Below, piece by piece: positions 1,930 through 31,797 of a stretch of DNA of 32,000 nucleotides. The notes beneath the pieces were generated by a model. The model was not told where the DNA came from. It saw only the letters and a program-made list of their open reading frames with translations, and searched no databases. The position numbers were made by a program, and so were the translations under genes. The stretch's first letter is position 1; each line of letters begins with the position of its first letter. The DNA comes from an uncultured archaeon (GTDB taxonomy: Archaea > Asgardarchaeota > Lokiarchaeia > Sigyniarchaeales > Promethearchaeaceae), in NCBI GenBank assembly GCA_964426185.1, contig CAYRPF010000005.1:45867-77866 (forward strand). The letters are read 5' to 3'.

Positions 1930-2607
1930 ATGGTATTTACTCGTCAATTAACCAAGGAAGAATCACAAATTTTGCTGAAATTGCAAAAATTTGTTCGATC
2001 TGCTCATGCGGAATCTAATTCTCACGATTATGCTCATGTATTAAGTGTATGTAAATATGCTATTCAAATTGGAAAGGCAATTCCCGACCCAGTAGACCCG
2101 TTTATTTTGAGTGCTGGCGCACTTCTTCATGATATTGGTAAAACTAACAGCGTATTTTCACATATTCATGGGCTTTTCGGTGGTTCTTTAGCTGAAGAGT
2201 TTTTAGATGGAATGAAAATTGATCCTGAGATACGTGATGCTATCTGCAGAGTAGTGATCCGTCATACTCCTACCTCTATGATACCTCCCGAAACTCCAGA
2301 AGAAATGGCGGTGTATGATGCTGATACTTTAGATAGATTAGGATTAATGGGTTTACTTAGAGGATTCATAGGAAAAAATGGCGCGATGGACGAAATCATA
2401 TCCACTTATATGGAAAAGCGCAAACAAGATTTTAAGAAGCTCCATTTTCAAGTAAGCAGAGATATTGGTCTCGAAAGTGAACAAATGATGCTGGCGTTTA
2501 TTGAGATAATAGAGGATCGTTTGAAAACAAGGATGGAGTCTATTCACGATATTTTCAGAAAGGAAGGTTTGTTAAACTCACATTTTCAGGATGGCTCGAA
2601 TCGGTGA
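1930..2607 (+). CDS. HD-domain metal-dependent phosphohydrolase
   Basis: H...HD...H...D signature: HDYAH, LLHDIGK, IRH, YDADTLDRLG. Confidence 0.9.
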   Translation: MVFTRQLTKEESQILLKLQKFVRSAHAESNSHDYAHVLSVCKYAIQIGKAIPDPVDPFILSAGALLHDIGKTNSVFSHIHGLFGGSLAEEFLDGMKIDPEIRDAICRVVIRHTPTSMIPPETPEEMAVYDADTLDRLGLMGLLRGFIGKNGAMDEIISTYMEKRKQDFKKLHFQVSRDIGLESEQMMLAFIEIIEDRLKTRMESIHDIFRKEGLLNSHFQDGSNR

Positions 2608-3321
2608 AACTGTTTTTGGATTGTCGAAAAGCAAACCATCAATATGATGAAATACTAATTCACTCATACGTTCCACTGGATCTTCATAATCCATAAAATG
2701 CCAGCTTAATGCAAGAATCTTGAGTTCATGACACTTTTCAATAAATTGTGTTATATTCGGATGGGTCGATTTCAAGGAGATCATACTGAATGGTAGAGGC
2801 AAATCCTTTTTTGATGAAGCTTGTAGAAATTTTTCCAGCGGGTATTGGGTACATTTAGTAATATTTAAGCACAAAGTGGAGTTGGGGCAAATTTCATGGG
2901 CATCAGCAATTTCAATGATATTTCTACCACTGAAAACCACTTGATCACCTAATTTATTTTTGAGAATTGTTTCCGCTGCCGGGATTCCCGTACCTTTTCC
3001 TTTTAGTTCTACCATAAATTTTGGGGTAGGTGAAGTCCATCTAACTCGCTGTTCGATTAATTCATTAAAGCTTGGAATTTTCCAAAGACCATCTTTGCTT
3101 CTAACTTCATCCAATTCACGGCTTGTATACTCCGATATTTTCCCGATTGCATTCATGGTTCTGTCAAGAGTGGAGTCATGCAGTATGTAAAGCATATTGT
3201 CACTAGAAAGTTGAAGATCGAATTCAATATAATCCATATTTAAGGTTGCTGATTTGTTAAACGCTTGAAAAGTGTTTTCTACCACTCCTACGCGGAATCC
3301 TCGATGAGCTATAAAAATCAT
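2578..3321 (-). CDS. Glycerophosphodiester phosphodiesterase (GDPD/GlpQ-UgpQ family)
   Basis: Motifs IAHRG, ENT, IEFDLQLSSD, LHDSTLDRT and VELK. The true start is most likely ATG 3321 (MIFIAHRG); the 47-aa upstream extension in the ORF track is low-complexity. Confidence 0.92.
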   Translation of the reverse strand: MIFIAHRGFRVGVVENTFQAFNKSATLNMDYIEFDLQLSSDNMLYILHDSTLDRTMNAIGKISEYTSRELDEVRSKDGLWKIPSFNELIEQRVRWTSPTPKFMVELKGKGTGIPAAETILKNKLGDQVVFSGRNIIEIADAHEICPNSTLCLNITKCTQYPLEKFLQASSKKDLPLPFSMISLKSTHPNITQFIEKCHELKILALSWHFMDYEDPVERMSELVFHHIDGLLFDNPKTVSPIRAILKM

Positions 3322-3507
3322 TGTTGAAATATGAAAGGATAAGCTATAAAAATCTTCGGATTCAAGAAGAAGATTGCCAATTAGATTAATAATCAGAATA
3401 GCGATTAAATAACAGTTAAATGAAAATAAAATGGAACAGAAAATGAATGAAATTTGTTCCATAGGAGAAAAAAATAGTAAAACACAGGCAGAAGTAGAAA
3501 AACGGTT

Positions 3508-3780
3508 TCATTCTGCTGCTAGAATATCTGCTGCTGTTATACGCTTTCGTTTTTCTGCTTTTACTATTTTCAAAGCATCTTTTGTAACCTTTGTTCCCAA
3601 TTTTTCTAGTTGCTCAATTAACATGCTCACAGCATCTTCGGCAACTAATTTCGCTCCTTCGGCCTTCATTAGACGTCGCATGGGGGCTTTGGCAATATGT
3701 CCTCCGCTTTTTACTGCGGGTTTTTTCTTTGCAGCCGCTTTCTTTTTCGGCTTAACTTTTGTTGCTCTTTTTTTAGCCAT
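3508..3780 (-). CDS. Archaeal histone with Lys-rich N-terminal tail (90 aa)
   Basis: The histone fold IAKAPMRRLMKAEGAKLVAEDA...KRKRITAADI aligns to HMf-type histones. It is preceded by MAKKRATKVKPKKKAAAKKKPAVK. ATG 3780 has an upstream GTGA RBS-like motif. Confidence 0.92.
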   Translation of the reverse strand: MAKKRATKVKPKKKAAAKKKPAVKSGGHIAKAPMRRLMKAEGAKLVAEDAVSMLIEQLEKLGTKVTKDALKIVKAEKRKRITAADILAAE

Positions 3781-3831
3781 AATAATCACTTTTATTTGAG
3801 TAAAAAAGGTAGATCTCCGCGAATAAGGAGT

Positions 3832-3841
3832 AATATAAATA
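3832..3841 (-). promoter_or_regulatory. Putative TATA box of the histone gene
   Basis: The minus strand reads TATTTATATT, with a purine-rich BRE-like stretch (AAGGGGAA) immediately upstream, ~55 nt before the ATG. Confidence 0.4.
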
Positions 3842-4035
3842 TTCCCCTTATTTTGATTAACTAACTTTGCCCTTTTAAATGTTGTCGCCGAAGAGTGAAA
3901 TTTCTTACGCAATAACTCTGATCATCCGAATTAATTCCGACATATTACGACTTTGCACGCAATATTTGAAATTTTTTTTATTCGATGAATGGAATCTGAA
4001 TTCATAAAAGGGGTGTCGAAGATATCATAATATAT

Positions 4036-5037
4036 ATGAAGGATTATGCAGTAATCTATAACCCAATTTCAGCGGCCGGAAAAACGAAAAAACAATTTGA
4101 ATTAGTCAAGAAAACCTTAGAAAATTTAAATATATCATTCGATCTTTTTCAAACGGAGTATTTTACTCATGCAATTACCCTCGCTAACGATTTAGCAAAT
4201 GATGGATATCGAATTATTGCCGCAGGCGGAGATGGAACTTGTAATGAAGTGTTAAACGGAGTAATCAACTCGAATACCCATGAATTGTTAGGCTTCATTC
4301 CAATGGGAACTGGTAATGACATTCCAGGTGCTGTTGGATATGCACCTAAAGATGTAAAGCGCGCTTGTGAAATAATTGCATCTGGTAATACTGGTCCTGT
4401 TGATGTTGGGGTATCCATTAATTCGTCTGGGGAAAAACGGTACTTTTTAGGCATAGGGAGCCAAGGTTTTGATGCAGAGGTAACCCAACGAACGAACGAA
4501 GGTTCAAAATTGTTACCTGGAACTTGGAATTATATTGCATCCGTGATTAGATCGGTATTCGGTTTTAAAAAACGGCACATTAAACTGACCACGGATTCAG
4601 AAACTTTCGAAGGTCTATGTAATTTAGTGGCTGTGGGCAACGGACCGACTTATGGTGGATTTATGTATATGTGTCCTCGCGCTAAAGTGAATGATGGATT
4701 ATTTCATATTTCAATGGTGAATATGGGCAGGTTTGAGTTACTCTACAAATTTAACACTATGTACTCCCGCACTCTTCATCCCGATCCGCATATTAGAGAA
4801 TTTATTGGTCGAAAGGTTAAAATTGAGATGGTAAATGATAATGATAATCCGTATATTGCTCAAGTTGATGGAGAAATTATTGGAAAACTTCCCGTGGAAT
4901 ACGAATGCATTAGAGATGGCTATATTTTCATCAAACCAAAAGAAAATGAAGCAGAAAAATGGTTCATGAAGCGGTATGGCAAGAAATTTTCCAAGCATTT
5001 GGAAGAATTACAAAACAAAGGGATTGAATATTATTAA
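4036..5037 (+). CDS. Diacylglycerol/lipid kinase (YegS/DAGK family)
   Basis: Motifs IYNPISA, AAGGDGTCNEV, IPMGTGND, GFDAEV, YGG and QVDGE. Confidence 0.93.
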   Translation: MKDYAVIYNPISAAGKTKKQFELVKKTLENLNISFDLFQTEYFTHAITLANDLANDGYRIIAAGGDGTCNEVLNGVINSNTHELLGFIPMGTGNDIPGAVGYAPKDVKRACEIIASGNTGPVDVGVSINSSGEKRYFLGIGSQGFDAEVTQRTNEGSKLLPGTWNYIASVIRSVFGFKKRHIKLTTDSETFEGLCNLVAVGNGPTYGGFMYMCPRAKVNDGLFHISMVNMGRFELLYKFNTMYSRTLHPDPHIREFIGRKVKIEMVNDNDNPYIAQVDGEIIGKLPVEYECIRDGYIFIKPKENEAEKWFMKRYGKKFSKHLEELQNKGIEYY

Positions 5038-5982: not shown

Positions 5983-8900
5983 ATGTTCTTGAATGTATTC
6001 CAATTAACAGATTTTCTTCTCAATAATTTAAATTCCTTTCTTATCGGTTTAAATACTCTAATCGGTATCATTATTTTTATTCGGATGATGGCTCATTCAA
6101 GGCAAGAATTAAAAACAGCCCCTCGTTATAACATTTTTCAGAAAGCCAGTAATTTTTTCGGAGCATTTTCTTACTCATTAATGGTTTCATTAACCGTGGT
6201 TTTTATCATTGCGTTGATATCTTCAATGATTGCTGTCAATGCACTTTATTATATCAATAATTTCAGAAGGGAATTCGCCAACTATAATCAGCTAATTGCC
6301 ACTTTTCAATATCCCGTATTTCTTCCTACTATTCTTGTGTTAATGGCAGCATTTGCTGTATTTTATTCTCTTTTAGAATATCTTTTAATGGCCCAGCCCT
6401 CTCAGGATGCTCCAATGGAGATTCAACGATGGATTGAAAAAACATTTATCGATCGATTTCGTCCTCCTTGGAGTTATCTTGTAGCCTTTATTATATTTGT
6501 GGTAATTGTTTTGCTTGCTCCATTTATTACAGCTCGATTATCTCTTCAGCTTTGGACCAATTTTCCTCCTAATGCAAAAATATGGTTAATTATCTTGATT
6601 TTTATGAGTTGGATTATGTTGGGACCAATTTTTTATCTTTCTTACTATTCCCAAATTGGAATTGTTCAAGCATATTTCCGTGGGCGTAAAATCAACAAGA
6701 AGAAAGATAAAAAAGGTGCCTTTTTCTACTACATTGCACTTTTAGGGATTTTCATGACAGTTTATTCTTTCATTAAAATCCTAATATTAATTTTTGATGC
6801 TCGACCTGACACTGCATTAAATCCATTAGATGCACAAGGTGATTTTTGGCCCATTATTTTTAAATTTATTAAGGAAAGAAGTGGATTGTTAACTCAAGAG
6901 CAAATACAAGCAATTCTTGCATTTTTTGCTATTTTTCCGCTTGGTTTTTCCAGTTTCATCTTAACAACTATTATTTTTGGTTTGGTTGGATTTTACGCCA
7001 AGTTTCTCAGTAAAGAACCGTTAAATACCCCAAAAATGATACTTTTCGCCGCTTACATCATTACGGGTATTGCATTTTCAATTTTCATTAATACAATTGT
7101 CAATTTTCCCTATACATTTCCTACACAGTTTCTAAATTCAATTGGATTTCCTCTAACTACCAGAAACATAAATGATCAAATATTGCTGTTAAGGATTTTT
7201 GCAATTCCCTTATTGATGGAAAAAACTATTAATCTAATATTTTTGATCAATTTCTTGTTTTTAAACAAATCTCTCAAACAACAGATGGAAAAACTTGTCT
7301 TAAATCAAGCTATAACTAACGAGGATTTTGAAATTTTTCAAAAATATCTTAATCATAGGGATCCTTCCATACGTTTGAAGTTATTCATTCATTTGGTTGA
7401 TTACATTAATCTTGATCCCACAATGACCGATCAAGCTAGAGATCAATTATCAAATATTTTTGAACGCTTTATTTTTGATGAAGATCCGAATATAAATCAG
7501 ATGTTTATAGAGAATTCGGCAAAAATTACCGACCTTTTTACTTTATCAAGCCAGTTAAACTTGTGTTATCGGTTGATTGCTAAGGAATCTCCACAATCAA
7601 TCAATATGGGCTTTAATTTACTAAAAATAGCATTACCATATTCACAAAATCTGTCAGACGATGAAAACACACAAATTTTCAAAGTTATGAAGAAAATTGT
7701 CTTAAAAAGTTACAACCCTCAAATAAACAATTCATTTACTGAATTTTTGAGTAACTTTCGCCGTAGTTTTCCAATACTTACTCGGAAATTAATCATCTCA
7801 TTTATTCAAGCAACTCCCCGCTTTGAAATATTGCTTGGGTTAAATTTTATTTCACAATTTCCAAAATTTGTTCAATCAGACAAAGATATCATCATTTTAT
7901 CCATTCAAAATCAATTAAAGAAAATGGATTTAGAAATTATTAAAAATGCTTTACATGCATATATTCGATTTGCGTTAGTTGAAACTTCTTTAATCCCTCA
8001 AATAATGACAGAATTTAATCAAATTACCTTAAATGAAGAGCCCATTATACAAGAAAAAATAGGTGGTATTGTACAGTTTAATTTAATTCATCCAGAATGG
8101 TTTGAGCAGTTTTTTGAGTATCTTCGTATTTACCTTGAAGATTCAAATATTTCAATCAAATCTGATGCATTAATCGCTTGTGGAACTTTAGCTTCACCAG
8201 TAAATGAGTTTCAATTCTTTAATTCTATCTATCCTTATTTTCTTCAAAATATTCAATCAGAAACAATAGAAATTCGAAAAGCCGTGATATCTTCACTTAT
8301 TGTCATTGCTCAAACTCGTCCTGATATATACAATGACCCAAGGTTTCACAAATTGTTCACTTTTCTCATCGTTGATCCTCGTTCAGAAATTCGACATCAA
8401 GTATATCGATTTTTCATCGATGGAGATCCAGAATATATTGTTCGTGATATAGCAAATTTGTTAGAAACTCCCATAAGTATAGGTGTGCGTGTTGATCTCC
8501 TTAATATTTTATCTCAAATTGTACCATCTGTTATACCTTATGTAGATGATATCGATCTTTACCGTATATTGATGGAACAGCCTTTCTCAAATCAAGAAAA
8601 TGAAGTAAATATGTCTGTAATTCAAGAATTGCAGGAAGATAAAACATCTTTGTTTGGATTTCGGAATTTTCAATCTTCGTTTAATCTCTATGACTCAATT
8701 GTTGCGTTAATGTATGATTTAACATACTACATTCCAGAAAAATATCATATCCTCGTTGATTTTTATCAAAAACATCAAAAATTGGAAAATGATTTCAGTC
8801 TTGCCAAGAAAATAGAATTTTACTCTAAGATTATATATGAAGAATTAAGCCTAACCAGAACGGTAGGAATTACTTTTACTTTGGTAAATTTAATTGAGCT

Positions 8901-10416
8901 TATCCATCAATCTTTCTCGAAAATCCAATATCATTCTACACATATTATTATTCAATATATCTCAAAACTTCTTAAAGTTGCCCCAGGTTTTCATAAAGAA
9001 TTGTTTGATATTGGTTATAACTTAATTTCGTTCAAATCTTACATGTCTGATTCGGACAAAGGGACCTTACTCGTCTTTTTTACGGAAATTATTACTCATT
9101 CAAGGGGAAATTATATTCAGCCAATTACCATTCCAATTTTCTTAAAATCCAAACAAATAACATTAAATCCGTTCGAAAAGGTTCTAAAACCCTTTCTACT
9201 CTTCTGCATGAAAAATTCTCACAAACAGATGGAAAATTTCATTATGGAATCATTACAGAAAATGATGACTGATTTTTCTGATATATCAAAAATTCAAGAT
9301 TTTCTGGTTCATATCATTCACCATTCTCATGATTCCGAAGTAAAAATATCCGCAATGAAATTTTTCACTTCACTCCCAATTGAAATTAAAAATAGGAAAA
9401 ATATTTTATTAATTTTGAACCAATTACGTTCTAAAGATGACAATGTAAAAGCCCAAGCTATAGAATCCATAGGAATCATTCTGCGCGCCTTTCCGACTGT
9501 AAACCCTGATGAAAAAGGGCCATATAGTTCATATGCTAAAGTTATTCGAGATCTTTTATATAATGCTTTTTATAGTTCTTACAGTATAACTGCTCCGATT
9601 CAAATTCGCGCAACAATTATAGCCCATTTAAAAACCATATTATTGATCCAACCTCATTTTCCAGTTTCTTTGAAAATTCTCGATCAACTCTCTCAAGAAC
9701 CAGATGAGGTGCTGGCTATTCAAGCAGTTTCACTACTATTTGATTTTGTTGATTTCCATAAGGAAAAACTTAGTGAAGAATTGGTAATTCTGCATCATTA
9801 TTCTAATTCCCCATTTGCTTCAGTGCAAAAGATCATGAGTGAACGTATCGCAGGATTATTTAATGAGAAAGTACATTTGAATGTATTATTTCCCATTATT
9901 TTCAATTTAACTACAAGCGATTTCCCTGAAATTCGTCAAATGGTATTTAACACCATATTTTTACTGTTTAATCAAGAACCTACTTTACTACCGCAATTTT
10001 TCTATAACCTACAAAAATTAACGAAACAAGTTAACTATGAAATTCGATATGATTCTTTTGAGCTATTGACTAAAATTGTTAATATACTTTCTTTATCAGA
10101 AGATTTGATTGGAAAATTTAATGAAACACTTCTTAGATTATCCATGGATCCCGAAATGGGAATAAAGATCTTCATTTCTCAGAATTTAGTTCATTTAATT
10201 CATCGATATCCTCAACATAGTTCCGAGTATTTACATATTATTTCGGATTTTATCAGGTTAAATAATTCGGAGATTGTAAAAAATATTATACCCGCTTGTA
10301 AAGCGGTTATTCAAGTAAACCAAGAATTCAAGCCTATATTAGAAAAACGGATTAAAAAGGTGTTTAAGAAAACCCAAAATCCGTTTATCGATACGTTGCT
10401 AAAGGAAATTTCTTAG
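5983..10416 (+). CDS. Large protein with polytopic membrane N-terminus and HEAT/ARM-like alpha-solenoid C-terminus (1477 aa)
   Basis: About 10 hydrophobic segments lie in aa 1-430. HEAT-like units follow (LEDSNISIKSDALIACG, SETIEIRKAVISSL, DPRSEIRHQV, SKDDNVKAQAIESIG, SDFPEIRQMV, DPEMGIKIFI). Confidence 0.75.
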   Translation: MFLNVFQLTDFLLNNLNSFLIGLNTLIGIIIFIRMMAHSRQELKTAPRYNIFQKASNFFGAFSYSLMVSLTVVFIIALISSMIAVNALYYINNFRREFANYNQLIATFQYPVFLPTILVLMAAFAVFYSLLEYLLMAQPSQDAPMEIQRWIEKTFIDRFRPPWSYLVAFIIFVVIVLLAPFITARLSLQLWTNFPPNAKIWLIILIFMSWIMLGPIFYLSYYSQIGIVQAYFRGRKINKKKDKKGAFFYYIALLGIFMTVYSFIKILILIFDARPDTALNPLDAQGDFWPIIFKFIKERSGLLTQEQIQAILAFFAIFPLGFSSFILTTIIFGLVGFYAKFLSKEPLNTPKMILFAAYIITGIAFSIFINTIVNFPYTFPTQFLNSIGFPLTTRNINDQILLLRIFAIPLLMEKTINLIFLINFLFLNKSLKQQMEKLVLNQAITNEDFEIFQKYLNHRDPSIRLKLFIHLVDYINLDPTMTDQARDQLSNIFERFIFDEDPNINQMFIENSAKITDLFTLSSQLNLCYRLIAKESPQSINMGFNLLKIALPYSQNLSDDENTQIFKVMKKIVLKSYNPQINNSFTEFLSNFRRSFPILTRKLIISFIQATPRFEILLGLNFISQFPKFVQSDKDIIILSIQNQLKKMDLEIIKNALHAYIRFALVETSLIPQIMTEFNQITLNEEPIIQEKIGGIVQFNLIHPEWFEQFFEYLRIYLEDSNISIKSDALIACGTLASPVNEFQFFNSIYPYFLQNIQSETIEIRKAVISSLIVIAQTRPDIYNDPRFHKLFTFLIVDPRSEIRHQVYRFFIDGDPEYIVRDIANLLETPISIGVRVDLLNILSQIVPSVIPYVDDIDLYRILMEQPFSNQENEVNMSVIQELQEDKTSLFGFRNFQSSFNLYDSIVALMYDLTYYIPEKYHILVDFYQKHQKLENDFSLAKKIEFYSKIIYEELSLTRTVGITFTLVNLIELIHQSFSKIQYHSTHIIIQYISKLLKVAPGFHKELFDIGYNLISFKSYMSDSDKGTLLVFFTEIITHSRGNYIQPITIPIFLKSKQITLNPFEKVLKPFLLFCMKNSHKQMENFIMESLQKMMTDFSDISKIQDFLVHIIHHSHDSEVKISAMKFFTSLPIEIKNRKNILLILNQLRSKDDNVKAQAIESIGIILRAFPTVNPDEKGPYSSYAKVIRDLLYNAFYSSYSITAPIQIRATIIAHLKTILLIQPHFPVSLKILDQLSQEPDEVLAIQAVSLLFDFVDFHKEKLSEELVILHHYSNSPFASVQKIMSERIAGLFNEKVHLNVLFPIIFNLTTSDFPEIRQMVFNTIFLLFNQEPTLLPQFFYNLQKLTKQVNYEIRYDSFELLTKIVNILSLSEDLIGKFNETLLRLSMDPEMGIKIFISQNLVHLIHRYPQHSSEYLHIISDFIRLNNSEIVKNIIPACKAVIQVNQEFKPILEKRIKKVFKKTQNPFIDTLLKEIS

Positions 10417-10430
10417 AAATTACATAATAC

Positions 10431-12527
10431 TTAGGAAAAATCTGCGAAAAATAATTTTTTAATTGAATCTAAGATATTTTCTAGAAATTCTTTTGTAATA
10501 TCTTTTGCTTCAGAAATTTTTTCGATTTCATTTGAGAAAATAACACTTAGTTTATCACGATCATAGAAGAAAACATTCAAATTTTCAGGAAATACCAAAG
10601 TAAACAAGAAATAAGCTTGACCTTTTGTCCTTTTTTCTTTTTGAGTATAATCTTTAATTGTTTGAGTATAAATTAAAGCAAATGTCTTAGGATCAGTAAA
10701 TAATAAAGGACCAAATAAACCTTGATGGTAGAGTTGACCTTGGCCGAGTGCAATAGAATACAAACTGCCAACTCTTAAAACATTCGCTTGAATGATTGGA
10801 TCCGATAAATCTAAACGAGTACTCTCTTGTATCATAGGACCTAGGCGTTCATCAATTTTAAAGACAATCATGGCGATTTCATTTAAATAATTTATTGAGA
10901 TTACGGATTCTCTAAAGGAATATAAAGGATCTCTTAATATATTGATCATTCGCTTAAATAGATAGCCTTCTATACTGGAGGAGATGGATTTTGCTGATGG
11001 TTTTGTTTCTATTAGGTTATGAATTTCCTCGCATAAGTGGATATGATATTCAAATGAAAGTTTTTTGGATATTTCAAAAGCGTTTTGTAATTTTTCTAAT
11101 GCCTTTTTGGGTGTTTCTAAGGCTATAAAAGATAAAGCCAAAATTTCATAAAGTAGCATTTGGAAGATGTGTTGATTTTTCTTTTTGGCAAGATCTAAAG
11201 ACTTAAGTGCTAAATTTTGTATATTTTGAATTATTTTTTGTTTGGTTTCTGGTTGATTTCGACTAAAATTTGAGTATTGCAGGAGATAATTACGAATTGA
11301 AAGAAAATTGAAAATGTTTTGGAAAAGTGTTTTATTCTTTCTTTGTGCGAGATTAGAACCCTCGCTCAGAAGAAATTCTGCTTCAAAGAAATTCTGATGT
11401 TCTATCGCTTTATTTGCTCTAAATTGCAAAATTTGCATTTGAATTTGCTTTAAATCGTATTTTTTAGCGAATTTGTCTGCTAATTTAAGATGAGAATAAG
11501 CTTGTCTTGTCTCACCAAGTTGATCTTCAATATTCGCTAAGAGAATTAGAATTTCTGCATGTTGAATAAAACCTTCAGTATCTTCAATAATAGAAATTGC
11601 TTTAATTAATAAATCCTTTGATTTTAAAAATTGAGATTTTAATTCCCAAAATTTAGCAAAAAATAACAATGCTTGTGCATACCTGACTGGATCTTCTAAT
11701 TCTTGATATAACGATATTGCTTGATCTAATATTTTGTTAGCTTCAATAATTCTACCTAATTGTAATAAAATATTCGCTTGCCCAACGTATAAATATGCTC
11801 GAGATCTACGATCTTCAATTTTTTGTGCCAATTCAATTCCTTTTTGAAAAACTTGCAATGCAGTATCATATTCTCCCATTATTTCTTTGGATTCTGCAAT
11901 ATTATGTAAAATCAAGCATTGCCATTTATGTAAATCGTTTTCTTCTGCTATTTGAAGAGCTTTTTCAAAATTCTGAAGGGCTAATTCATTATCACCATTT
12001 TCCCTTAGAATTAATGCCATATTTGAGATCAATTGTATTTTTAATTGATAATTTCCTGTAAGATCCAGAGATTCTACTAAAGATAGGTATTTTAATGCTT
12101 CAGAATTTTTATTTTGGTGATAGTAAATTGCCCCCAAAATCATCCCAGTTCTGGCGGCTTTTACGTGTAATCCCAGTTTTTGAAAAATTTCTAAGGCTTT
12201 TCTTGCTCTAATTTCGGATTTTTTGAATTCTCCCATTTCCATTTCGATTAAAGAGATTCCACGTAAAGACTCTCCTTTGAATTCCAAATGATATTTTTTT
12301 ATGGAGTAATCATATAACTCAAAATAATATTTTCTTGCTTCAGAGAACTTCGATTGGTAAAAACAAGCAGATCCAAGCATATTTAAAATTTGAAACCTTT
12401 CTGCTTCTTCTTTTGCTATATTTAATAATTCATTTAACTCTTGCTCAGCTTCACGAGGGTGTTTCATAATTTCTTGCTCTAACTCGTCTAATCGAGATAG
12501 TATCTCTGATTTTGAATCCAGTCTCAT
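10431..12527 (-). CDS. TPR-repeat protein with C-terminal longin/uDENN-like domain
   Basis: Many TPR-like units (LNMLGSACFYQSKFSEARKYY, ISNMALILRENGDNELALQNFEKALQIA). The C-terminal ~150 aa begin IAMIVFKIDERLGPMI. Confidence 0.8.
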   Translation of the reverse strand: MRLDSKSEILSRLDELEQEIMKHPREAEQELNELLNIAKEEAERFQILNMLGSACFYQSKFSEARKYYFELYDYSIKKYHLEFKGESLRGISLIEMEMGEFKKSEIRARKALEIFQKLGLHVKAARTGMILGAIYYHQNKNSEALKYLSLVESLDLTGNYQLKIQLISNMALILRENGDNELALQNFEKALQIAEENDLHKWQCLILHNIAESKEIMGEYDTALQVFQKGIELAQKIEDRRSRAYLYVGQANILLQLGRIIEANKILDQAISLYQELEDPVRYAQALLFFAKFWELKSQFLKSKDLLIKAISIIEDTEGFIQHAEILILLANIEDQLGETRQAYSHLKLADKFAKKYDLKQIQMQILQFRANKAIEHQNFFEAEFLLSEGSNLAQRKNKTLFQNIFNFLSIRNYLLQYSNFSRNQPETKQKIIQNIQNLALKSLDLAKKKNQHIFQMLLYEILALSFIALETPKKALEKLQNAFEISKKLSFEYHIHLCEEIHNLIETKPSAKSISSSIEGYLFKRMINILRDPLYSFRESVISINYLNEIAMIVFKIDERLGPMIQESTRLDLSDPIIQANVLRVGSLYSIALGQGQLYHQGLFGPLLFTDPKTFALIYTQTIKDYTQKEKRTKGQAYFLFTLVFPENLNVFFYDRDKLSVIFSNEIEKISEAKDITKEFLENILDSIKKLFFADFS

Positions 12528-18908: not shown

Positions 18909-21869
18909 TTATTTTTTGGGTAATTTTCTTGGGCCAATAAGTTGATTTATTAATTTTGGTATTTCTTTGAGTTGTAGCATTGTTTGGGGTGAAACAGTTA
19001 CAGATTTCCCAATTTTTTGAATAGCGAGTAAACTATATATTATCCGTTCTAAGTAGTCGATTAAATCTCCTGGAAAAATTTTTATCTCGAATTCATCTTT
19101 GAATACTTGAACTATCTCGGAAATACTCAATCCACTCAAACGGTAATCGAAAATAAATCCTTCTACATTTTTCCGACCACAGTCGCAGTAAGGTGAATCC
19201 TCGCAAGAGCAATTGAAAATATCTTCTATCCAGCGAATTATCGTTTCGTATACTCTTCGATTGAGCCGTCCTCTTTGTTTTTTGCCCATGTAATCTGCGG
19301 AAATCATGGATAAAACCGAATTAGAAAATAAATTATTAGAACGAGATTGTCTTTCACTCTTTAAACTGAGTTCTGCCAACATTCGATTAGTAACATAAAC
19401 GTTCATAAATTTATTCAAACTTTGTGCCAAGATTAGCATATCTGGGGCGGGGTTTTCTTCAGTTACTGGTCTAGTTAGTTCTTTACGAATTTGGATTGCC
19501 TGTGAAAGCGACAGATATGATTCTGCTACAGCTTTTCCAAACTTAGTGGTTCGAAATTCTGTGTTATTGTAAACAGGACGAATCATATGCACACGATAAA
19601 GATATTTTATGGCTGATTTAAGATCGAAATCTCCATTAAATAATAGAGAATGAAAATACCGTAGATTTCCTTTGCTTATACCACGTTCAAGGGTTCTATC
19701 ATAACTATACATACTTATAATGGCTAAAATCTCGGCATATTGGAGTTCATCATTTGGAGGTAATTGTAATGCTTCAATTTCTCCTTTAAGCAGACGCATG
19801 GCTAATTGTTCTTCTGTTTCCATATATGCTGCTGTAAATGTTTTTCCAGGCGTAATCAGCAGATATACCTTGCCAAGGTCATGTTTTTTTAGTCTTCCAG
19901 CGCGCCCACTCATCTGTTCAAAATCTGCAACAGTTAATGGTTGAATACCCATGACTAAAGAATAAAATACAACTAAACTGGCTGGAAAATCTACCCCAGC
20001 TGCAAGTGCTGCTGTTGTGACGACACATGCCACCTTTTGCATCTCAAATGACTTTTCTATGAATTTTCTTTTACCATAATCTAAGCCTCCATGATAAGCA
20101 TAGGCGGTAATATTGTTTTTTCTCAGCTGTTCAGCCAATTTCTCAGTATTTTTTCGAGAATTGGTAAAAACTATGGTTTGCCCTTTAAATCCAAAGCTTG
20201 ATTTAACCCGATATTCTTCTCGAACCAACCTTCGAAGATGTTTGAATTTTGTAGGCTCATCCATGCAAATAACTAAGTGTCTTTCAATTGGAACAGGTCT
20301 ATCTTTATAATGAATAAGTGATGCACGAATATGTGTTGCTAGTTTCTCTGGATCTGAAATAGTTGCACTCAAGTATAACATTTGAGCTTTGGGAAGATAA
20401 AGTCGTAAGCGGGCGATTAATCCATCCAGAATAAAACCCCTTTCAGGGTCTGCTAACATTTGGATTTCATCCACAACTATGGTCCGAAAGTCACGTAGCA
20501 AATATGGATGACCGCTTCTTAATAAGATATCGATTGCCTCATATGTGGCAATCACGACATCTGCTTTTGTTAAGGTGCCTAAATCTTCTTTAACACCTGC
20601 TTTTCGAGAAATGTGAGAAATCCCTATTTTCAAAGCGGAATTTACTCCAATTTTCTGCAATTCTTTATATTCTTGAAAACGCATATTTGCCAAAGCCACA
20701 ATTGGAACTAAATATAGCATTTTTGCTTTGGATTTGATCTTTTTCATCGTTTGCAGAAATTTTACTTGCACCTCGCTAAACGTATATGATTCATCCTTGG
20801 AGTAGTGACTTTTTGATCTTGAATTATGGAATGGATTTTTCTGATTATTGTTTTTGGTCAAGATTTGAATTTTATTCTCTATAATTTTACCAATCCCCGC
20901 CATTTCCCCTATCATTGTTTTTCCCGAGGAAGTTGAAGATACAATTAATTCATCTTGGTTGTGAAGTAATCCATGTTCCAAAGCCATAATTTGTGCAGGG
21001 AGTAATTCAACCCGATGTTTTTTAGCATAGAAAATTTGTAAAGGATAAGGAATTGGAAAATCCCAGATGGTTCCTTTTTTTTCATTGGCTTTTTGAATCT
21101 TCTTCTTGCGCACATTAACCAAAGTTGCTTCGCGATGAGCGATGATATCGAAATTTGGGTTAAAAATATTCAGAACCTTCACTACATCATTATATCGCTT
21201 TAACATTTTACTTAAATATTTTTTAAACTCGGAAGTTATTTCTATTCGCGTTTTCAACATGGCTACTATCTCATTTCCAGCGCATTTTCGACAAACATAA
21301 AAAGCTTGGTTCTTATAACGGTTGTATTCATCAATTAGTGTATATCGCTTGTTTTGTCTGCATGAATGACAAAAAAGATAATTTCGTATTTTATCATAAT
21401 GAAGTGCATTTAAATAATTATAAACTGGGGTTAAGGAATTCAAATACTCGTTCATTTGTTGAATTTGGATCTCGTGAGCGTCAGTTTCTACAACTTGAAA
21501 GTTATCCATTTGATGCCCTTGTGGGCGATTTAAATGATTTCCAACAATACAAAATTGTGCGTGAAGGATAAAGTAACGAAAATCACTTGGATCTAAAACT
21601 TTCAAGGCATTCTCTGGGTTTGTCGCCTTTAGATTTCTTTTCCAAAATTTGAAAGGAACATATGAACCATTTTCTGTTTCCACATCAAATAGCACTAATC
21701 CTGTAAAAAATGGCAACTCACGATAACGCAGTTCATGATAAAACTGATCATCCTTGATAATATCAAAACACACTACATCAAAGTACTTTTTACGGGGATG
21801 TTCTAAGTCCTTATCTAGTATAGTGAAATATTTTTTTTTTTGCAAAATACCAGAAATACTGGGCGACAT
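18909..21869 (-). CDS. Ski2-like SF2 helicase, archaeal ASH-Ski2/DUF5814 type
   Basis: Motifs STSSGKT, DEIQ, SAT and QMSGRAGR; N-terminal CxxC...CxxC; C-terminal CSCEDSPYCDCG. Confidence 0.88.
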   Translation of the reverse strand: MSPSISGILQKKKYFTILDKDLEHPRKKYFDVVCFDIIKDDQFYHELRYRELPFFTGLVLFDVETENGSYVPFKFWKRNLKATNPENALKVLDPSDFRYFILHAQFCIVGNHLNRPQGHQMDNFQVVETDAHEIQIQQMNEYLNSLTPVYNYLNALHYDKIRNYLFCHSCRQNKRYTLIDEYNRYKNQAFYVCRKCAGNEIVAMLKTRIEITSEFKKYLSKMLKRYNDVVKVLNIFNPNFDIIAHREATLVNVRKKKIQKANEKKGTIWDFPIPYPLQIFYAKKHRVELLPAQIMALEHGLLHNQDELIVSSTSSGKTMIGEMAGIGKIIENKIQILTKNNNQKNPFHNSRSKSHYSKDESYTFSEVQVKFLQTMKKIKSKAKMLYLVPIVALANMRFQEYKELQKIGVNSALKIGISHISRKAGVKEDLGTLTKADVVIATYEAIDILLRSGHPYLLRDFRTIVVDEIQMLADPERGFILDGLIARLRLYLPKAQMLYLSATISDPEKLATHIRASLIHYKDRPVPIERHLVICMDEPTKFKHLRRLVREEYRVKSSFGFKGQTIVFTNSRKNTEKLAEQLRKNNITAYAYHGGLDYGKRKFIEKSFEMQKVACVVTTAALAAGVDFPASLVVFYSLVMGIQPLTVADFEQMSGRAGRLKKHDLGKVYLLITPGKTFTAAYMETEEQLAMRLLKGEIEALQLPPNDELQYAEILAIISMYSYDRTLERGISKGNLRYFHSLLFNGDFDLKSAIKYLYRVHMIRPVYNNTEFRTTKFGKAVAESYLSLSQAIQIRKELTRPVTEENPAPDMLILAQSLNKFMNVYVTNRMLAELSLKSERQSRSNNLFSNSVLSMISADYMGKKQRGRLNRRVYETIIRWIEDIFNCSCEDSPYCDCGRKNVEGFIFDYRLSGLSISEIVQVFKDEFEIKIFPGDLIDYLERIIYSLLAIQKIGKSVTVSPQTMLQLKEIPKLINQLIGPRKLPKK

Positions 21870-26038: not shown

Positions 26039-27190
26039 TTAAATCCGATTGCGGTATTTATAAATTCCGAAAATGATTAAAGCCACTGTGGCGATACTAC
26101 CAATTACAATCCCTGTAATAGCCCATGGATTTGTTTCTAACTGCCAAATTTCTTCATTCATCAGAGCATTACGGCTGGTGCTGAACGCTTCTGAATCATA
26201 GAGTAAAATGGTACTAACTGCATAGTAGGAAAGCTTCGCAGAAGAGATTAATTCGGCATTTCCACTTGAAACATCAGCAAAACCATAATCGGTTGGATTT
26301 TGTCGGGATAACACCCATGTTAAAGTTTCTTCATGTAAGGGAATGTCCAATAGTGATAAGATGTGAGTGGCAAAATATGTCAACAATAAAGAACTCTGCG
26401 TAATTCCAGTTTGAATACCATATCCACCATAATGTAGGCTTTGTGTAGGGTCTCCAAAATAATAACTCTCTACAAAATCTGAAATACCTTGAATTTGAGT
26501 GGAATTTAATTGATTTAAACTGTTAAGTTCTGATAAAGTAGCCAAAGCATAGTATGTATCAATAATGGTGGCTTCTCCACCAGGTATTGAAGCAAACGCC
26601 GAATTTTCTGCATCCCAAGTACTGAAGACAAAGTTTGCAAGATTGGTTGGTGAAGTTTCATTAATTTTTCCAAAAGTAGTTAAGAGTTTCACAGCAAAAT
26701 AAGTGTCGGGAATGTTTGCTTCGGTGGCTTCTGCACTTGCGAATCCATTGGTGGTATCATTCTGCAGTTCAAATAATTTCGTGGTTGCATCTTCGATCAT
26801 AGTGGAAGTGAAATTTGTATCCAGCAAAATTCCTCCAAAATAAGCATAATATGCTTGTGTTATTATACCACTGCCTACATCAGAGAACTGTAAGTAACGA
26901 TCACGAAGATAACTGCGAATAATTCCTTGGTCGTTCAAATTTGTCAGTTCAGAATCGATTTGCGCTAAAATAAACAAATTTGCGTAGGTGGTAAATTCTG
27001 AAAGAAGTCCTTCATCTTCCACATTTCCAGTGGGAGTATCTAAAAACGCTCCTGAGGAATGTTGGTTGCTAAGGCAAAATTGTTCCAATAATTCCTTTCG
27101 ATTGGCTGCAGCGGCATTTTGCACCGAAAGAAAAAGGGCGAGCGTAATGGAAATTGTTATTAAGAGGGTTAATTTATTACGACGTTTCAT
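26039..27190 (-). CDS. Secreted, C-terminally membrane-anchored prenyltransferase/squalene-cyclase-like repeat (alpha/alpha barrel) protein
   Basis: Signal peptide MKRRNKLTLLITISITLALFLSVQNAAA; repeats Q..G(G/A)F...TY(F/Y)A; C-terminal TM plus KYRNRI. Alternative start at 27208. Confidence 0.78.
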   Translation of the reverse strand: MKRRNKLTLLITISITLALFLSVQNAAAANRKELLEQFCLSNQHSSGAFLDTPTGNVEDEGLLSEFTTYANLFILAQIDSELTNLNDQGIIRSYLRDRYLQFSDVGSGIITQAYYAYFGGILLDTNFTSTMIEDATTKLFELQNDTTNGFASAEATEANIPDTYFAVKLLTTFGKINETSPTNLANFVFSTWDAENSAFASIPGGEATIIDTYYALATLSELNSLNQLNSTQIQGISDFVESYYFGDPTQSLHYGGYGIQTGITQSSLLLTYFATHILSLLDIPLHEETLTWVLSRQNPTDYGFADVSSGNAELISSAKLSYYAVSTILLYDSEAFSTSRNALMNEEIWQLETNPWAITGIVIGSIATVALIIFGIYKYRNRI

Positions 27191-27314
27191 TTTTCCGAAA
27201 CCTTTCATTTTCTTATAGATTTGTTCCTTAAAATTATAGATATATTTTAAAAAGTGTGGTATTAACCGTTGAAAATGAAGAAAAATCCCTCTATTTAGAG
27301 GTTAAATACCGTAA

Positions 27315-28928
27315 TTATTGAAATACTTTACTGAAATCGATTAAACAACTATTCGGATTTTCGGTAAATTTTTCATAAGATACCATGAATTTCCGAAATG
27401 ATGGTATTGCTCCCAAGATAGATGCTCCACGATAAGAAGCATATATTCGATTTGGTGGAAGAATAACATTTACGATTAGATCATCCTTGTGTTTTTTCTC
27501 AAATTCTTCGTCGAGTTGAACCAGCTCTTCTAACTCTTCACTATCATACTCGGATTCAATTTCATCGCTAATTTTCGCTAATTCTTTTTCATCCCCAGCA
27601 ACTTGTTTAATTAAACGTTTTTCCTTTCTATCCAATTTATCTTCGATAATGATAGACTCTAATTTAGCACCGCAGTGATTGCAAAATGGAGATTCTCCAT
27701 CCAATGTCCCGCCACATTCCGGACATTTGATGGGATACTGTTGTTTGGCTGCTCCAATAATATCAATTTGTTGCACAAACACATTTCTTAAATCTGCCCC
27801 ACAGAACGGGCAAAATTCGCTCTCTTCAAAATTAATAACTTCTCCACATTTGGGACAGTTTCCTTCTTTAGTCTGTCTTCTTCCATCAAGTTGGACCATT
27901 TTATGGGAATCTTCTTGGAACGGAATTTCTTCTGGTTGAGGCTCTTCTTCTGGTTTTTCCTTTGGAATTCTCGCTTTTAATTCATCGAGGGATAAATTTA
28001 GTTCTTGAATAAGTCGTTCTTTAAACCCGGAAATTAAAGATGTTCCCCCCGTTAATACTATATTCTGCAATAATGGCTTAATATAATAGGGATTTATCAG
28101 TGTCAACGAATTAATTATCGCTTGGGCAATATTTTCCGCTTGGGGAAGAATTAGTTGAGGATTAAATAACACTTCGGCAGCATTGATGATTATATATTCG
28201 CTGATATGAAGTTTTTCTCCATCGGGTAGAAGATAATCAACTGCATTAACTGTATCTTGGCCTGCATGAACCGGATCCAAGCTAATCTTTAGACATTTTT
28301 CTTTAATATCCTTCAGAATTTCACGTTTTTGAAATATACCATATTGAGTGAGAAGTTGATTGAGGTATTCTTCGATATCTGCTCCAGCGATATTTAAACG
28401 ACGAATGCTGGGATTGTATAATTGAGCTTCCATTACGGGAGTGATTGAAGTAATTCCAGTACCTACTTCCACTGATAAAGCCGTGGTTAAGCCAATTGAA
28501 AAAACCGCGGTAGTCGCAGAATCTATTACGGCTACCTTTTGAAAACGATGGGTTTCAAATAGCACACGAGCAAAATATTCTGCGATATCAGGTGGTGTAA
28601 GCGGAGGGACGATATAAATCACATTATACTGAGATGGATCAGTTATTCGGAGAATATTATAGAATATATGGTTCAAAATGGCGTAGTAATGGTCCCAATT
28701 GGTGACAGTGCCTCGGTGGATGGGATATTCCAATTTTAAAACTCCCCGCATCCGAGTAGTATCATCTCCCACATAGATCTCCTGTGCTTGAGTTCCTGCC
28801 ATCTGCCGGTATTTGGGGATCCCTACTACTGTTGGAAAGACCGCCCTCGGTTTATCTTCCCCTACAAAACCCACTTTAGTATACCCTTCACCAATGTCAA
28901 GAATAATAGTATATTCGTTGTAGCTCAT
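27315..28928 (-). CDS. Actin-related protein with inserted double zinc ribbons
   Basis: Colinear with actin: ILDIGEGYTKVGFVGEDKPRAVFPTVVG, YVGD, LEYPIHRGTVTNWD, YLLPDG, EVLFNP, NIVLTGGTS, PPNRIYASYRGASILG. The insertion contains CPKCG/CPFCG and CPECG/CNHCG. Confidence 0.93.
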   Translation of the reverse strand: MSYNEYTIILDIGEGYTKVGFVGEDKPRAVFPTVVGIPKYRQMAGTQAQEIYVGDDTTRMRGVLKLEYPIHRGTVTNWDHYYAILNHIFYNILRITDPSQYNVIYIVPPLTPPDIAEYFARVLFETHRFQKVAVIDSATTAVFSIGLTTALSVEVGTGITSITPVMEAQLYNPSIRRLNIAGADIEEYLNQLLTQYGIFQKREILKDIKEKCLKISLDPVHAGQDTVNAVDYLLPDGEKLHISEYIIINAAEVLFNPQLILPQAENIAQAIINSLTLINPYYIKPLLQNIVLTGGTSLISGFKERLIQELNLSLDELKARIPKEKPEEEPQPEEIPFQEDSHKMVQLDGRRQTKEGNCPKCGEVINFEESEFCPFCGADLRNVFVQQIDIIGAAKQQYPIKCPECGGTLDGESPFCNHCGAKLESIIIEDKLDRKEKRLIKQVAGDEKELAKISDEIESEYDSEELEELVQLDEEFEKKHKDDLIVNVILPPNRIYASYRGASILGAIPSFRKFMVSYEKFTENPNSCLIDFSKVFQ

Positions 28929-31134: not shown

Positions 31135-31797
31135 ATGAAATTTTCGCTGGCAAAAATCAAGCGGATTGGGACACCCATCATTGCTCTATTCATCTTTCTT
31201 TCCCTAAGTTTTGTCTTTAACGGTGAAATTCCTTGGTTTTCTGCTCCATTCTCCCCAAAACTCCTTGAAAAATTGACTGAAAATATAATTTTAATCTTGT
31301 TTATTGGTTCGGGATTTTTTGTTCTCCTTACCGCAGAATGTTTTAATTATCTCAATTTTAAGCATACTTGGGTAAATACCTCTCAAAGTTCATTTGTGAC
31401 TGCCTTAAACAAAAAAGATTGGTTTGGGCTACTAGTGCAGTTTCCATTGATCATACTCATTGAAGAAATCGTGTTTCGAGGCATTATTCTGCTGATTTTT
31501 TCGCTGTGTCTGAAGGGATTTTTGAAAGGATTTTTGAACGAATTTTTAATTATTTTAGCTTCAAGTTTAATTTTTTGTCTTTATCACCTACATGTCTATC
31601 TATCAACTGATGATTGGAAAATTACTGGGTTTTACATGGGGTTTAGTTTGATTATAGGGATAATTCTGGCTCTATTCTTTTCATACGTAGGAATTATAGG
31701 CGTTTGGATATATCATGTTATTGTCGTGGCTGGAATTTACTGGCAGTGGAAAAATTATGAAAACAAGACCCAAAAAACCTTTTCCGTTAATTTGTAG
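31135..31797 (+). CDS. CPBP (Abi/CAAX type II) intramembrane metalloprotease
   Basis: Motifs EEIVFRG, FCLYH and C-terminal H (WIYH); multiple TM helices; abuts the nuclease stop. Confidence 0.85.
   Translation: MKFSLAKIKRIGTPIIALFIFLSLSFVFNGEIPWFSAPFSPKLLEKLTENIILILFIGSGFFVLLTAECFNYLNFKHTWVNTSQSSFVTALNKKDWFGLLVQFPLIILIEEIVFRGIILLIFSLCLKGFLKGFLNEFLIILASSLIFCLYHLHVYLSTDDWKITGFYMGFSLIIGIILALFFSYVGIIGVWIYHVIVVAGIYWQWKNYENKTQKTFSVNL

Follow-up and report, generated by a model that had tools for sequence, protein, structure and literature searches.

The gene at positions 3508–3780 of the window, the whole stretch of 32 000 nucleotides of Asgard archaeal DNA that was analysed, encodes a protein which the evidence supports as an archaeal (Asgard) histone of the nucleosomal type carrying a basic, disordered N-terminal tail. 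It is best explained overall as a chromatin histone of the tailed HLoB family with a charge-neutralizing and modifiable tail, an explanation to which we give a probability of roughly 0.82. The gene is a further member of a family that has already been described: reports from 2018 (PMC6136690) and 2024 (PMC11390915) record Asgard histones whose tails are rich in lysine, and the remark in the original prediction that most archaeal histones are tailless, with tails in a minority of lineages including the Asgards, agrees with both reports. Tailed Asgard histones bear on the origin of eukaryotic chromatin with modifiable tails, and the present gene adds a well supported syntenic orthologue from a second genus of the Loki class (Harpocratesius-like); it opens no new question, since direct study of the family, of its abundance and of its modifications is already under way. 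The gene, its parts and the elements that flank it are listed below.

3508–3780, minus strand: complete coding sequence of the tailed histone, 90 residues plus TGA (from the reading of the ORF, the PF00808 match and the orthologues)
3709–3780, minus strand: Lys/Ala/Pro-rich N-terminal tail, codons 1–24 (from composition, a low-pLDDT coil and retention in syntenic orthologues)
3700–3708, minus strand: SGG hinge, codons 25–27, between the tail and the fold
3511–3699, minus strand: histone fold, codons 28–90, with α1 at 31–41, α2 at 48–75 and α3 at 83–89 (from PF00808, the HMfA match and the AlphaFold2 model)
3785–3789, minus strand: GTGAT, a putative Shine–Dalgarno-like element 4 nt before the ATG, invariant in 5/5 orthologous loci
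3844–3889, minus strand: conserved upstream block with the TATA-like ATTTAAAA (3873–3880, 93–100 nt before the ATG), nearly invariant in five orthologous loci
3468–3502, minus strand: three oligo-T tracts (T5, T4 and T7 on the coding strand) just past the stop, a putative archaeal terminator

The coding sequence runs from an ATG at 3780–3778 to a TGA at 3510–3508, and the interval 3700–3780, in which a tailed histone had been predicted, coincides exactly with codons 1–27 of this minus-strand gene. A protein of 99% identity is found on three other contigs, and an orthologue of 95 residues bears the database name 'histone [Ca. Harpocratesius sp.]'. The N-terminus MAKK is common to nearly all homologues, and the start context GTGAT-TATT-ATG is invariant across five orthologous histone loci. 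The next methionine had been predicted to lie inside helix 1, and both M34 and M38 do fall within α1 (residues 31–41); in an alignment of 24 sequences, M34 is replaced by Ile in most orthologues and so cannot be the start of the family. The earlier judgement that a downstream start is unlikely therefore holds, given both the Ile at this position and the invariance of MAKK and of its Shine–Dalgarno-like context, and by sequence comparison the annotated MAKK start is the real N-terminus of the protein. Other readings of the locus were rejected: the plus-strand ORF at 3431–3799 is a Phe/Ala-rich antisense shadow of the Lys/Ala codons of the histone, and an in-frame TTG at 3912, which would extend the ORF to 134 residues, precedes the conserved TATA-like box and falls in a stretch that is not conserved.

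The histone fold is matched by PF00808 over residues 31–89 with an E value of 9.1e-10 (39.1 bits against a cut-off of 21.4), and the score for PF00125 (core histone), over residues 3–89, falls exactly on the cut-off of that model. The best relatives of solved structure are HMfA (E 1.8e-6), HMfB (2e-5) and HPhA, all of them colinear and free of gaps, so that residue n of HMfB corresponds to residue n + 26 of the tailed histone; the family profile scores HPhA at 1e-12, HMfA at 1e-11 and HHoB at 1e-10. The AlphaFold2 model, built on the alignment of 24 sequences, has helices at residues 31–41, 48–75 and 83–89, with block-mean pLDDT values of ∼88–93 from residue 51 onward. When the monomer model was compared with the PDB using Foldseek, no match was obtained at E ≤ 0.001, as expected for an extended fold that is an obligate dimer, and the ranking, with H4 chains, HMfA, HMfB and HPhA first, is used only qualitatively. 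R36, G42, R78, K79 and D85 correspond to R10, G16, R52, K53 and D59 of HMfB, and R36, G42, R78 and D85 vary little or not at all in the family; the features of archaeal nucleosomal histones, namely a fold of ∼65 residues, the DNA-anchoring Arg10, the R52–D59 salt bridge and Gly16, are all found in the protein.

The 90-residue product starts MAKKRATKVKPKKKAAAKKKPAVK, and its first 24 residues comprise 11 Lys, one Arg, six Ala and two Pro with no Asp or Glu, the lysine and arginine counts being those originally given; the SGG that was predicted to join the tail to the fold occupies residues 25–27, and the fold residues 28–90. The occurrence of at least 12 basic residues in 24 has a binomial probability of ∼2e-6 against the 10.9% Lys + Arg of the long ORFs of the window, but the decisive support for the tail is its conservation and not this probability. 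Residues 1–30 are modelled by AlphaFold2 as coil with a pLDDT of 50–57. The conservation of the tail, on which the original prediction depended, is borne out by its retention under purifying selection in the syntenic orthologues: in the two more distant of these, dN/dS is 0.27 and 0.13 for the tail and 0.05 and 0.02 for the fold, values that are rough owing to small counts and a dS near saturation, and many AAA/AAG, CCG/CCA and GCN changes within the tail are synonymous among orthologues. Judged from these comparisons, the tail is under purifying selection that is several-fold more relaxed than that on the fold. Its length shifts by indels, the orthologue from Harpocratesius sp. being longer by five residues, and its sequence is not conserved beyond MAKK and the composition; the SGG hinge, within the sequence KSGGHIAKAP, is confined to the four closest orthologues, and farther relatives have ERNAY, KKSY or similar in its place. 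The indels and the non-alignable tails point to selection on composition and charge and not on position, which makes an electrostatic role more likely than a site-specific code. As neither the sequence nor the length of the tail is conserved, site-specific marks are not transferable from relatives.

Compared with the tails of eukaryotic histones, that of the present protein is built from Lys, Ala and Pro without Gly/Arg motifs and is nearer to the C-terminal domain of H1 or the N-terminal tail of H2B than to the tails of H3 and H4. In composition alone it resembles what we take to be the common character of the H1 C-terminal domain, the H2B N-terminal tail and the C-terminal tail of mycobacterial HupB/Hlp, which are rich in Lys, Ala and Pro and lack acidic residues, and like these it presumably binds DNA non-specifically and neutralizes charge. 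There is no homology to these proteins, however, and here it is a histone fold that bears the tail; the winged-helix globular domain of linker histone H1 is absent from the protein, in which the Pfam search and the structure model revealed only the histone fold.

Loki histones have been sorted into a tailless group, HLoA, a tailed group, HLoB, and a divergent group, HLoC (bioRxiv 10.64898/2026.07.02.735847), and the protein is provisionally filed as an HLoB-type histone from another genus on the basis of identity, an epitope and a sequence signature. Its closest named relatives are proteins of Ca. Harpocratesius sp., of a Promethearchaeota archaeon and of L. ossiferum (NEF87_003938), and the last, which is tailed, is 61% identical to it. 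The HLoB histones of Ca. Lokiarchaeum ossiferum (Cho et al., 2026), an organism of the same class (Promethearchaeia), share with it the N-terminus MAKK, a disordered Lys/Ala/Pro tail and a fold with the L2/α3 motif KRKR(I/V)TAAD, and ten of 13 residues match between the C-terminal epitope of HLoB.1, RKRVTAADVIAAE, and the corresponding RKRITAADILAAE. The protein shares the signature RGL..RKRD with tailed relatives, whereas the HLoA-like paralogues have G(I/M).H.RKK. The genomic setting is also alike, with several paralogues alongside tailless HLoA-like histones. The differences from the L. ossiferum proteins are the genus, which is Harpocratesius-like, a tail that can be aligned by composition only and the SGG hinge, which is specific to the closest orthologues. 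In the other Asgard class represented by Heimdall/Hodarchaeales LC_3, the HMpB-type histone HA (PMC6136690) likewise has a Lys-rich tail of H4-like length and a weakened interface (H49N there and H49A here), although the two proteins, set side by side from the published description, differ in that HA has an RRR exit motif where K-SGG-H is found here.

Among eukaryotic core histones, the family profile matches H4 alone (E 3e-5 to 3e-4). H4 and the tailed histone are colinear with an offset of one residue, have tails of equal length and have the motifs I-x-K-x-x-I/M-R-R-L and K-R-K-x-V/I-T-A-x-D-V/I in common, whereas the Gly/Arg-rich motifs of the H4 tail, its basic patch and its C-terminal extension are absent from the archaeal protein, which has Ala at the position of H4 H75. 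A particular closeness to H4 was not found, as the profile gives 1e-12 for HPhA but no E value better than 3e-5 for H4, archaeal histones scoring better by at least seven orders of magnitude. The agreement in tail length is probably a coincidence, because the tails of the family range from 8 to 76 residues.

The range of these tails became apparent from an exhaustive search of 1.84 billion representatives, which yielded 96 relatives at E ≤ 0.001; once earlier matches and the paralogues from the same genome were added to them, 94 single-fold proteins were usable. Tails of at least 15 residues with at least six Lys or Arg are present in 40 of these 94, the longest being of 76 residues, and Lys/Ala/Pro tails of 8–76 residues occur in dozens of relatives. 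Among individual proteins, P0050 is a histone of 145 residues with a 76-residue H1-like tail of KKPA/KKTT repeats, P0029 is a tailed histone of 271 residues with a C-terminal extension of 178 residues, P0024 (374 residues) contains four histone folds and P0039 (649 residues) has a C-terminal histone fold behind an unrelated region of 559 residues. PF00808 is found at eight loci of the genome itself (3.26 Mb, 92% complete), and cultured Loki strains have 8–11 histone genes (bioRxiv 10.64898/2026.07.02.735847). Three of the eight loci encode tailed histones, namely the gene in the window and those on contigs C30 (tail of ∼21 residues) and C26 (tail of ∼47 residues), while the other five histones are short and start MAKKKR-FAWSP or similar. 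Tailless histone genes also occur as two tandem pairs, L002/L003 (contig C53) and L007/L008 (contig C34), with 60–120 nt between the members, an arrangement in which the two genes of a pair may be transcribed together and their products may form heterodimers. Behind the paralogue on contig C5 (L005) comes a degenerate third histone-like ORF (frame ∼1689).

By analogy with histone structure, two chains, either of the same protein or of the protein and a paralogue, would pair through the histone fold, and the dimer would bind ∼30 bp of DNA with contacts expected from R36 (HMfB R10) and from the basic L2 cluster K77-R78-K79-R80. The flexible tail of ∼27 residues, with a net charge of about +12, would exit at the N-terminus of α1 beside the DNA and could neutralize the phosphate charge of that duplex or of a neighbouring one, leading to higher affinity and compaction. 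As in the Loki family, Met1 would be removed, the tail lysines may be methylated, and GNAT and Sir2 enzymes may respectively add acetyl groups to them and take these off, so that the charge would be tuned. The original proposal, in which the tail can be methylated or acetylated, can bind DNA or does both, finds its support by homology to HLoB (bioRxiv 10.64898/2026.07.02.735847), both modification and DNA binding being extrapolated from a relative of ∼60% identity in another genus. In that relative's group, HLoB is highly abundant and co-localized with DNA, the initiator Met of the Loki histones is removed, tail lysines are methylated in vivo with acetylation seen once, and tail peptides of HLoB are acetylated by the GNAT enzyme LoHAT2 and deacetylated by LoSIR2b in vitro, while neither reader domains nor a complete methylation pathway were found (bioRxiv 10.64898/2026.07.02.735847).

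The genome that contains the window has one SIR2 locus and three HDAC-family genes, one of which was matched as two stretches, whereas a SET domain gave no match in this 92%-complete genome, which falls short of proving its absence. A GNAT of 139 residues (PF00583, E 1.7e-20) is encoded on contig C26 (L001:1858–2277, plus strand), 168 nt downstream of and co-oriented with the gene for the histone with the 47-residue tail, and on the strength of this position it is a candidate tail writer. The presence of these enzymes is only permissive for modification of the tail, because the SIR2, HDAC and GNAT families are ubiquitous.

The protein departs from the classical HMf histones in several positions that bear on oligomerization, a point that has received little discussion. 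The fold is colinear with those of HMfB, HMfA and HPhA (PDB entries 1a7w, 1b67, 1ku5 and 5t5k), with R10, G16, R52, K53 and D59 conserved, but a tail of 27 residues is added and the chain ends five residues earlier. The L1–L2 pair Arg19–Thr54 of HMfB is missing, with L45 and R80 in its place; H49 and L62 are replaced by A75 and A88, and the last residue aligns with HMfB V64, leaving a shorter α3 (residues 83–89), whereas I72 (HMfB L46) and D85 (D59) are kept at the tetramer interface. Position 19 is Leu in 34 of the 40 tailed relatives and position 54 is Arg in 28 of them, residue 54 being known to be diversified in Asgards (PMC7776873). With the contacts of His49 and Leu62 missing, α3 short and the Arg19–Thr54 pair replaced, the oligomerization of the tailed histone, and of most of its tailed relatives, may differ from that of the classical hypernucleosome histones, and classical hypernucleosome behaviour is not to be assumed. 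These changes in the fold (no His49 or Leu62, a short α3, Leu19 and Arg54) travel with the tail and are testable in cultured Loki strains. They could mean that the protein is a capstone or dimer-only variant which forms no hypernucleosomes, and that isolated dimers or caps limit the oligomers of the tailless paralogues, the tail offsetting the lost cooperative affinity. The substitutions at residues 49 and 62 and the early end of the chain would fit such a role, as would the five short-tailed paralogues of the same genome, which retain His49 and end 3–4 residues later. A hydrophobic or acidic residue 49 has been proposed as a marker of capstones with an unstable dimer:dimer interface (PMC7776873), weaker interfaces are known in tailed histones from Heimdall and Bathyarchaeota (PMC6136690), and a preprint on HHoB proposes a possible capstone role for other histone variants. 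The capstones Msp_0383 and Msm_1260 of the Methanobacteriales (PMC7776873), compared at residue 49 from sequence, are also non-His there, as the tailed histone is with A75, but they are tailless, lowly expressed and from an unrelated lineage. His49 is absent from 35 of the 40 tailed relatives and from 30 of the 54 untailed ones, counts that are descriptive only, since the sample was picked by similarity to a query without His49 and is phylogenetically non-independent. Against the capstone role, the protein retains D59 (as D85) and still has a hydrophobic residue, I72, at position 46, and HLoB is abundant, is predicted to form nucleosome-like particles and, in the case of HLoB.2, gave a hypernucleosome model that stayed intact in MD (bioRxiv 10.64898/2026.07.02.735847); we regard this role as rather unlikely. 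A bolder and still less probable version would make the tailed HLoB-type histones a distinct functional class, which has lost His49, Leu62 and the end of α3, carries its minor-groove Arg on L2 (position 54) instead of L1 (position 19) and, as tail-assisted dimers, caps or spaces the oligomers of tailless paralogues without hypernucleosome extension. If this were true, the way in which H3–H4 and H2A–H2B divide their tasks would have an archaeal forerunner in the capping tailed histones.

The remaining alternatives concern the tail and the type of protein. The tail might act mainly as a signalling platform, with site-specific marks read by other factors and charge of minor importance; this is favoured by the writer and eraser activities seen in vitro and by the finding that methylated tail peptides of Loki and Hod histones are enriched relative to unmodified ones, but reader domains were not found in Asgards (bioRxiv 10.64898/2026.07.02.735847). 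The positions of the lysines and the length of the tail vary, moreover, even among close orthologues (the five-residue indel of Harpocratesius and the 8–76 residues of the family), and no SET enzyme was found in the genome, so a mainly signalling function is improbable. The protein could also be a transcription factor with a histone fold, of the NF-YB/CBF or TAF type, and not a bulk chromatin protein: PF00808 also spans NF-Y/CBF, there are weak matches to TAF (E 0.0018, below the cut-off) and to NF-YB2 (2e-4), and the histones of Haloferax are low-abundance regulators. Archaeal nucleosomal histones nevertheless score seven to eight orders of magnitude above NF-YB, and the size of the protein, its DNA-contact residues and its probable kinship with the abundant, DNA-colocalized HLoB point to chromatin, which makes a transcription factor very unlikely. 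The least credible of the readings is that the tail is untranslated, owing to a downstream start, or represents neutral low-complexity drift towards AAA in an AT-rich genome. One database gene call (P0005, 57 residues) does start at M34, and the G + C content of 29–37% favours AAA and AAG codons. A start at M34 would, however, remove the first residues of α1 together with the conserved segment before it, at a position where most orthologues have Ile and against an invariant MAKK and Shine–Dalgarno-like context, and the tails of the L. ossiferum homologues have been detected by mass spectrometry (bioRxiv 10.64898/2026.07.02.735847). Drift accords poorly with the dN/dS of 0.13–0.27 and the many synonymous changes in the tail, and with its GC-rich Ala and Pro codons. 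The preferred reading remains that of a chromatin histone of the HLoB family.

With respect to the elements that flank the gene, the start context GATTATTATGGC is found not only here (L006 being the gene's own copy) but also at the other histone genes L004, L005 and L007 of the genome, and a CATTTAAATA-like box lies upstream of two other histone genes. The conserved block containing ATTTAAAA is a putative promoter, which would imply a leader of ∼65–70 nt; a nearer TATA-like sequence, ATTTATATTA (3831–3840), was rejected as the main promoter element, as it is not conserved across the five orthologous loci. In the histone genes of the genome (3814–3889 on the minus strand for the present gene, L004, L005 and L007), a CATTTAAA(T/A)A box 75–100 nt upstream, GCGGAG(A/G) and GATTATTATGGC recur with variable spacing between the elements, and these common upstream sequences suggest long leaders and perhaps joint regulation of the histone genes. 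A scan for σ70 promoters and intrinsic terminators is not meaningful for an archaeon and was set aside, its two 'terminators' being antisense and inside the tail codons, and a search of Rfam matched no family across the whole window. Among the contigs of four DNA runs, the sole natural variant of the protein is V9A (3755 A>G), accompanied by an indel adjoining the gene. Among public runs, none of RNA was listed as covering 3000–4600. In the spacer between the histone gene and the GDPD gene (3375–3415), contigs from three metagenome runs diverge at 3416 and rejoin at the sequence found at 3355–3374, so that a population indel of ∼35–40 nt is present just downstream of the terminator region of the histone gene.

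Ca. Harpocratesius sp. and two other assemblies have the same gene order as the window, BacA-DAGK/YegS-histone-GDPD-HD-405aa-PvlArgDC. In the assembly of Harpocratesius sp. (L009:1985–4087), genes for a GH3 glycosidase and an Impact_N protein lie between BacA and DAGK; these are absent in the genome of the window. The GDPD ORF of 294 residues (2578–3462, minus strand) is probably over-extended at its 5′ end, its orthologues having 240–252 residues, and may start near the Met of MIFIAHRGF at about 3324. Elsewhere in the window, an actin-family gene and other genes fit an Asgard genome. The actin-family protein (537 residues, 27315–28928, minus strand; Pfam Actin E 1.5e-71) ends in a C-terminal double zinc-ribbon/DUF7575, an unusual metal-binding tail. 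A HEAT-repeat protein of 1477 residues (5983–10416, plus strand) has a sub-threshold match to the Adaptin N-terminal domain and may be a eukaryote-like solenoid or trafficking protein; it is followed on the opposite strand by a TPR protein of 698 residues (10431–12527). A prenyltransferase α–α-toroid protein (26039–27208, minus strand) and an Rce1-like CAAX endopeptidase (31135–31797, plus strand) are encoded ∼4 kb apart and, from their domains, could be parts of a route of protein prenylation and CAAX processing. A DEAD/Helicase_C protein of 986 residues with a C-terminal DUF5814 is encoded at 18909–21869 on the minus strand.
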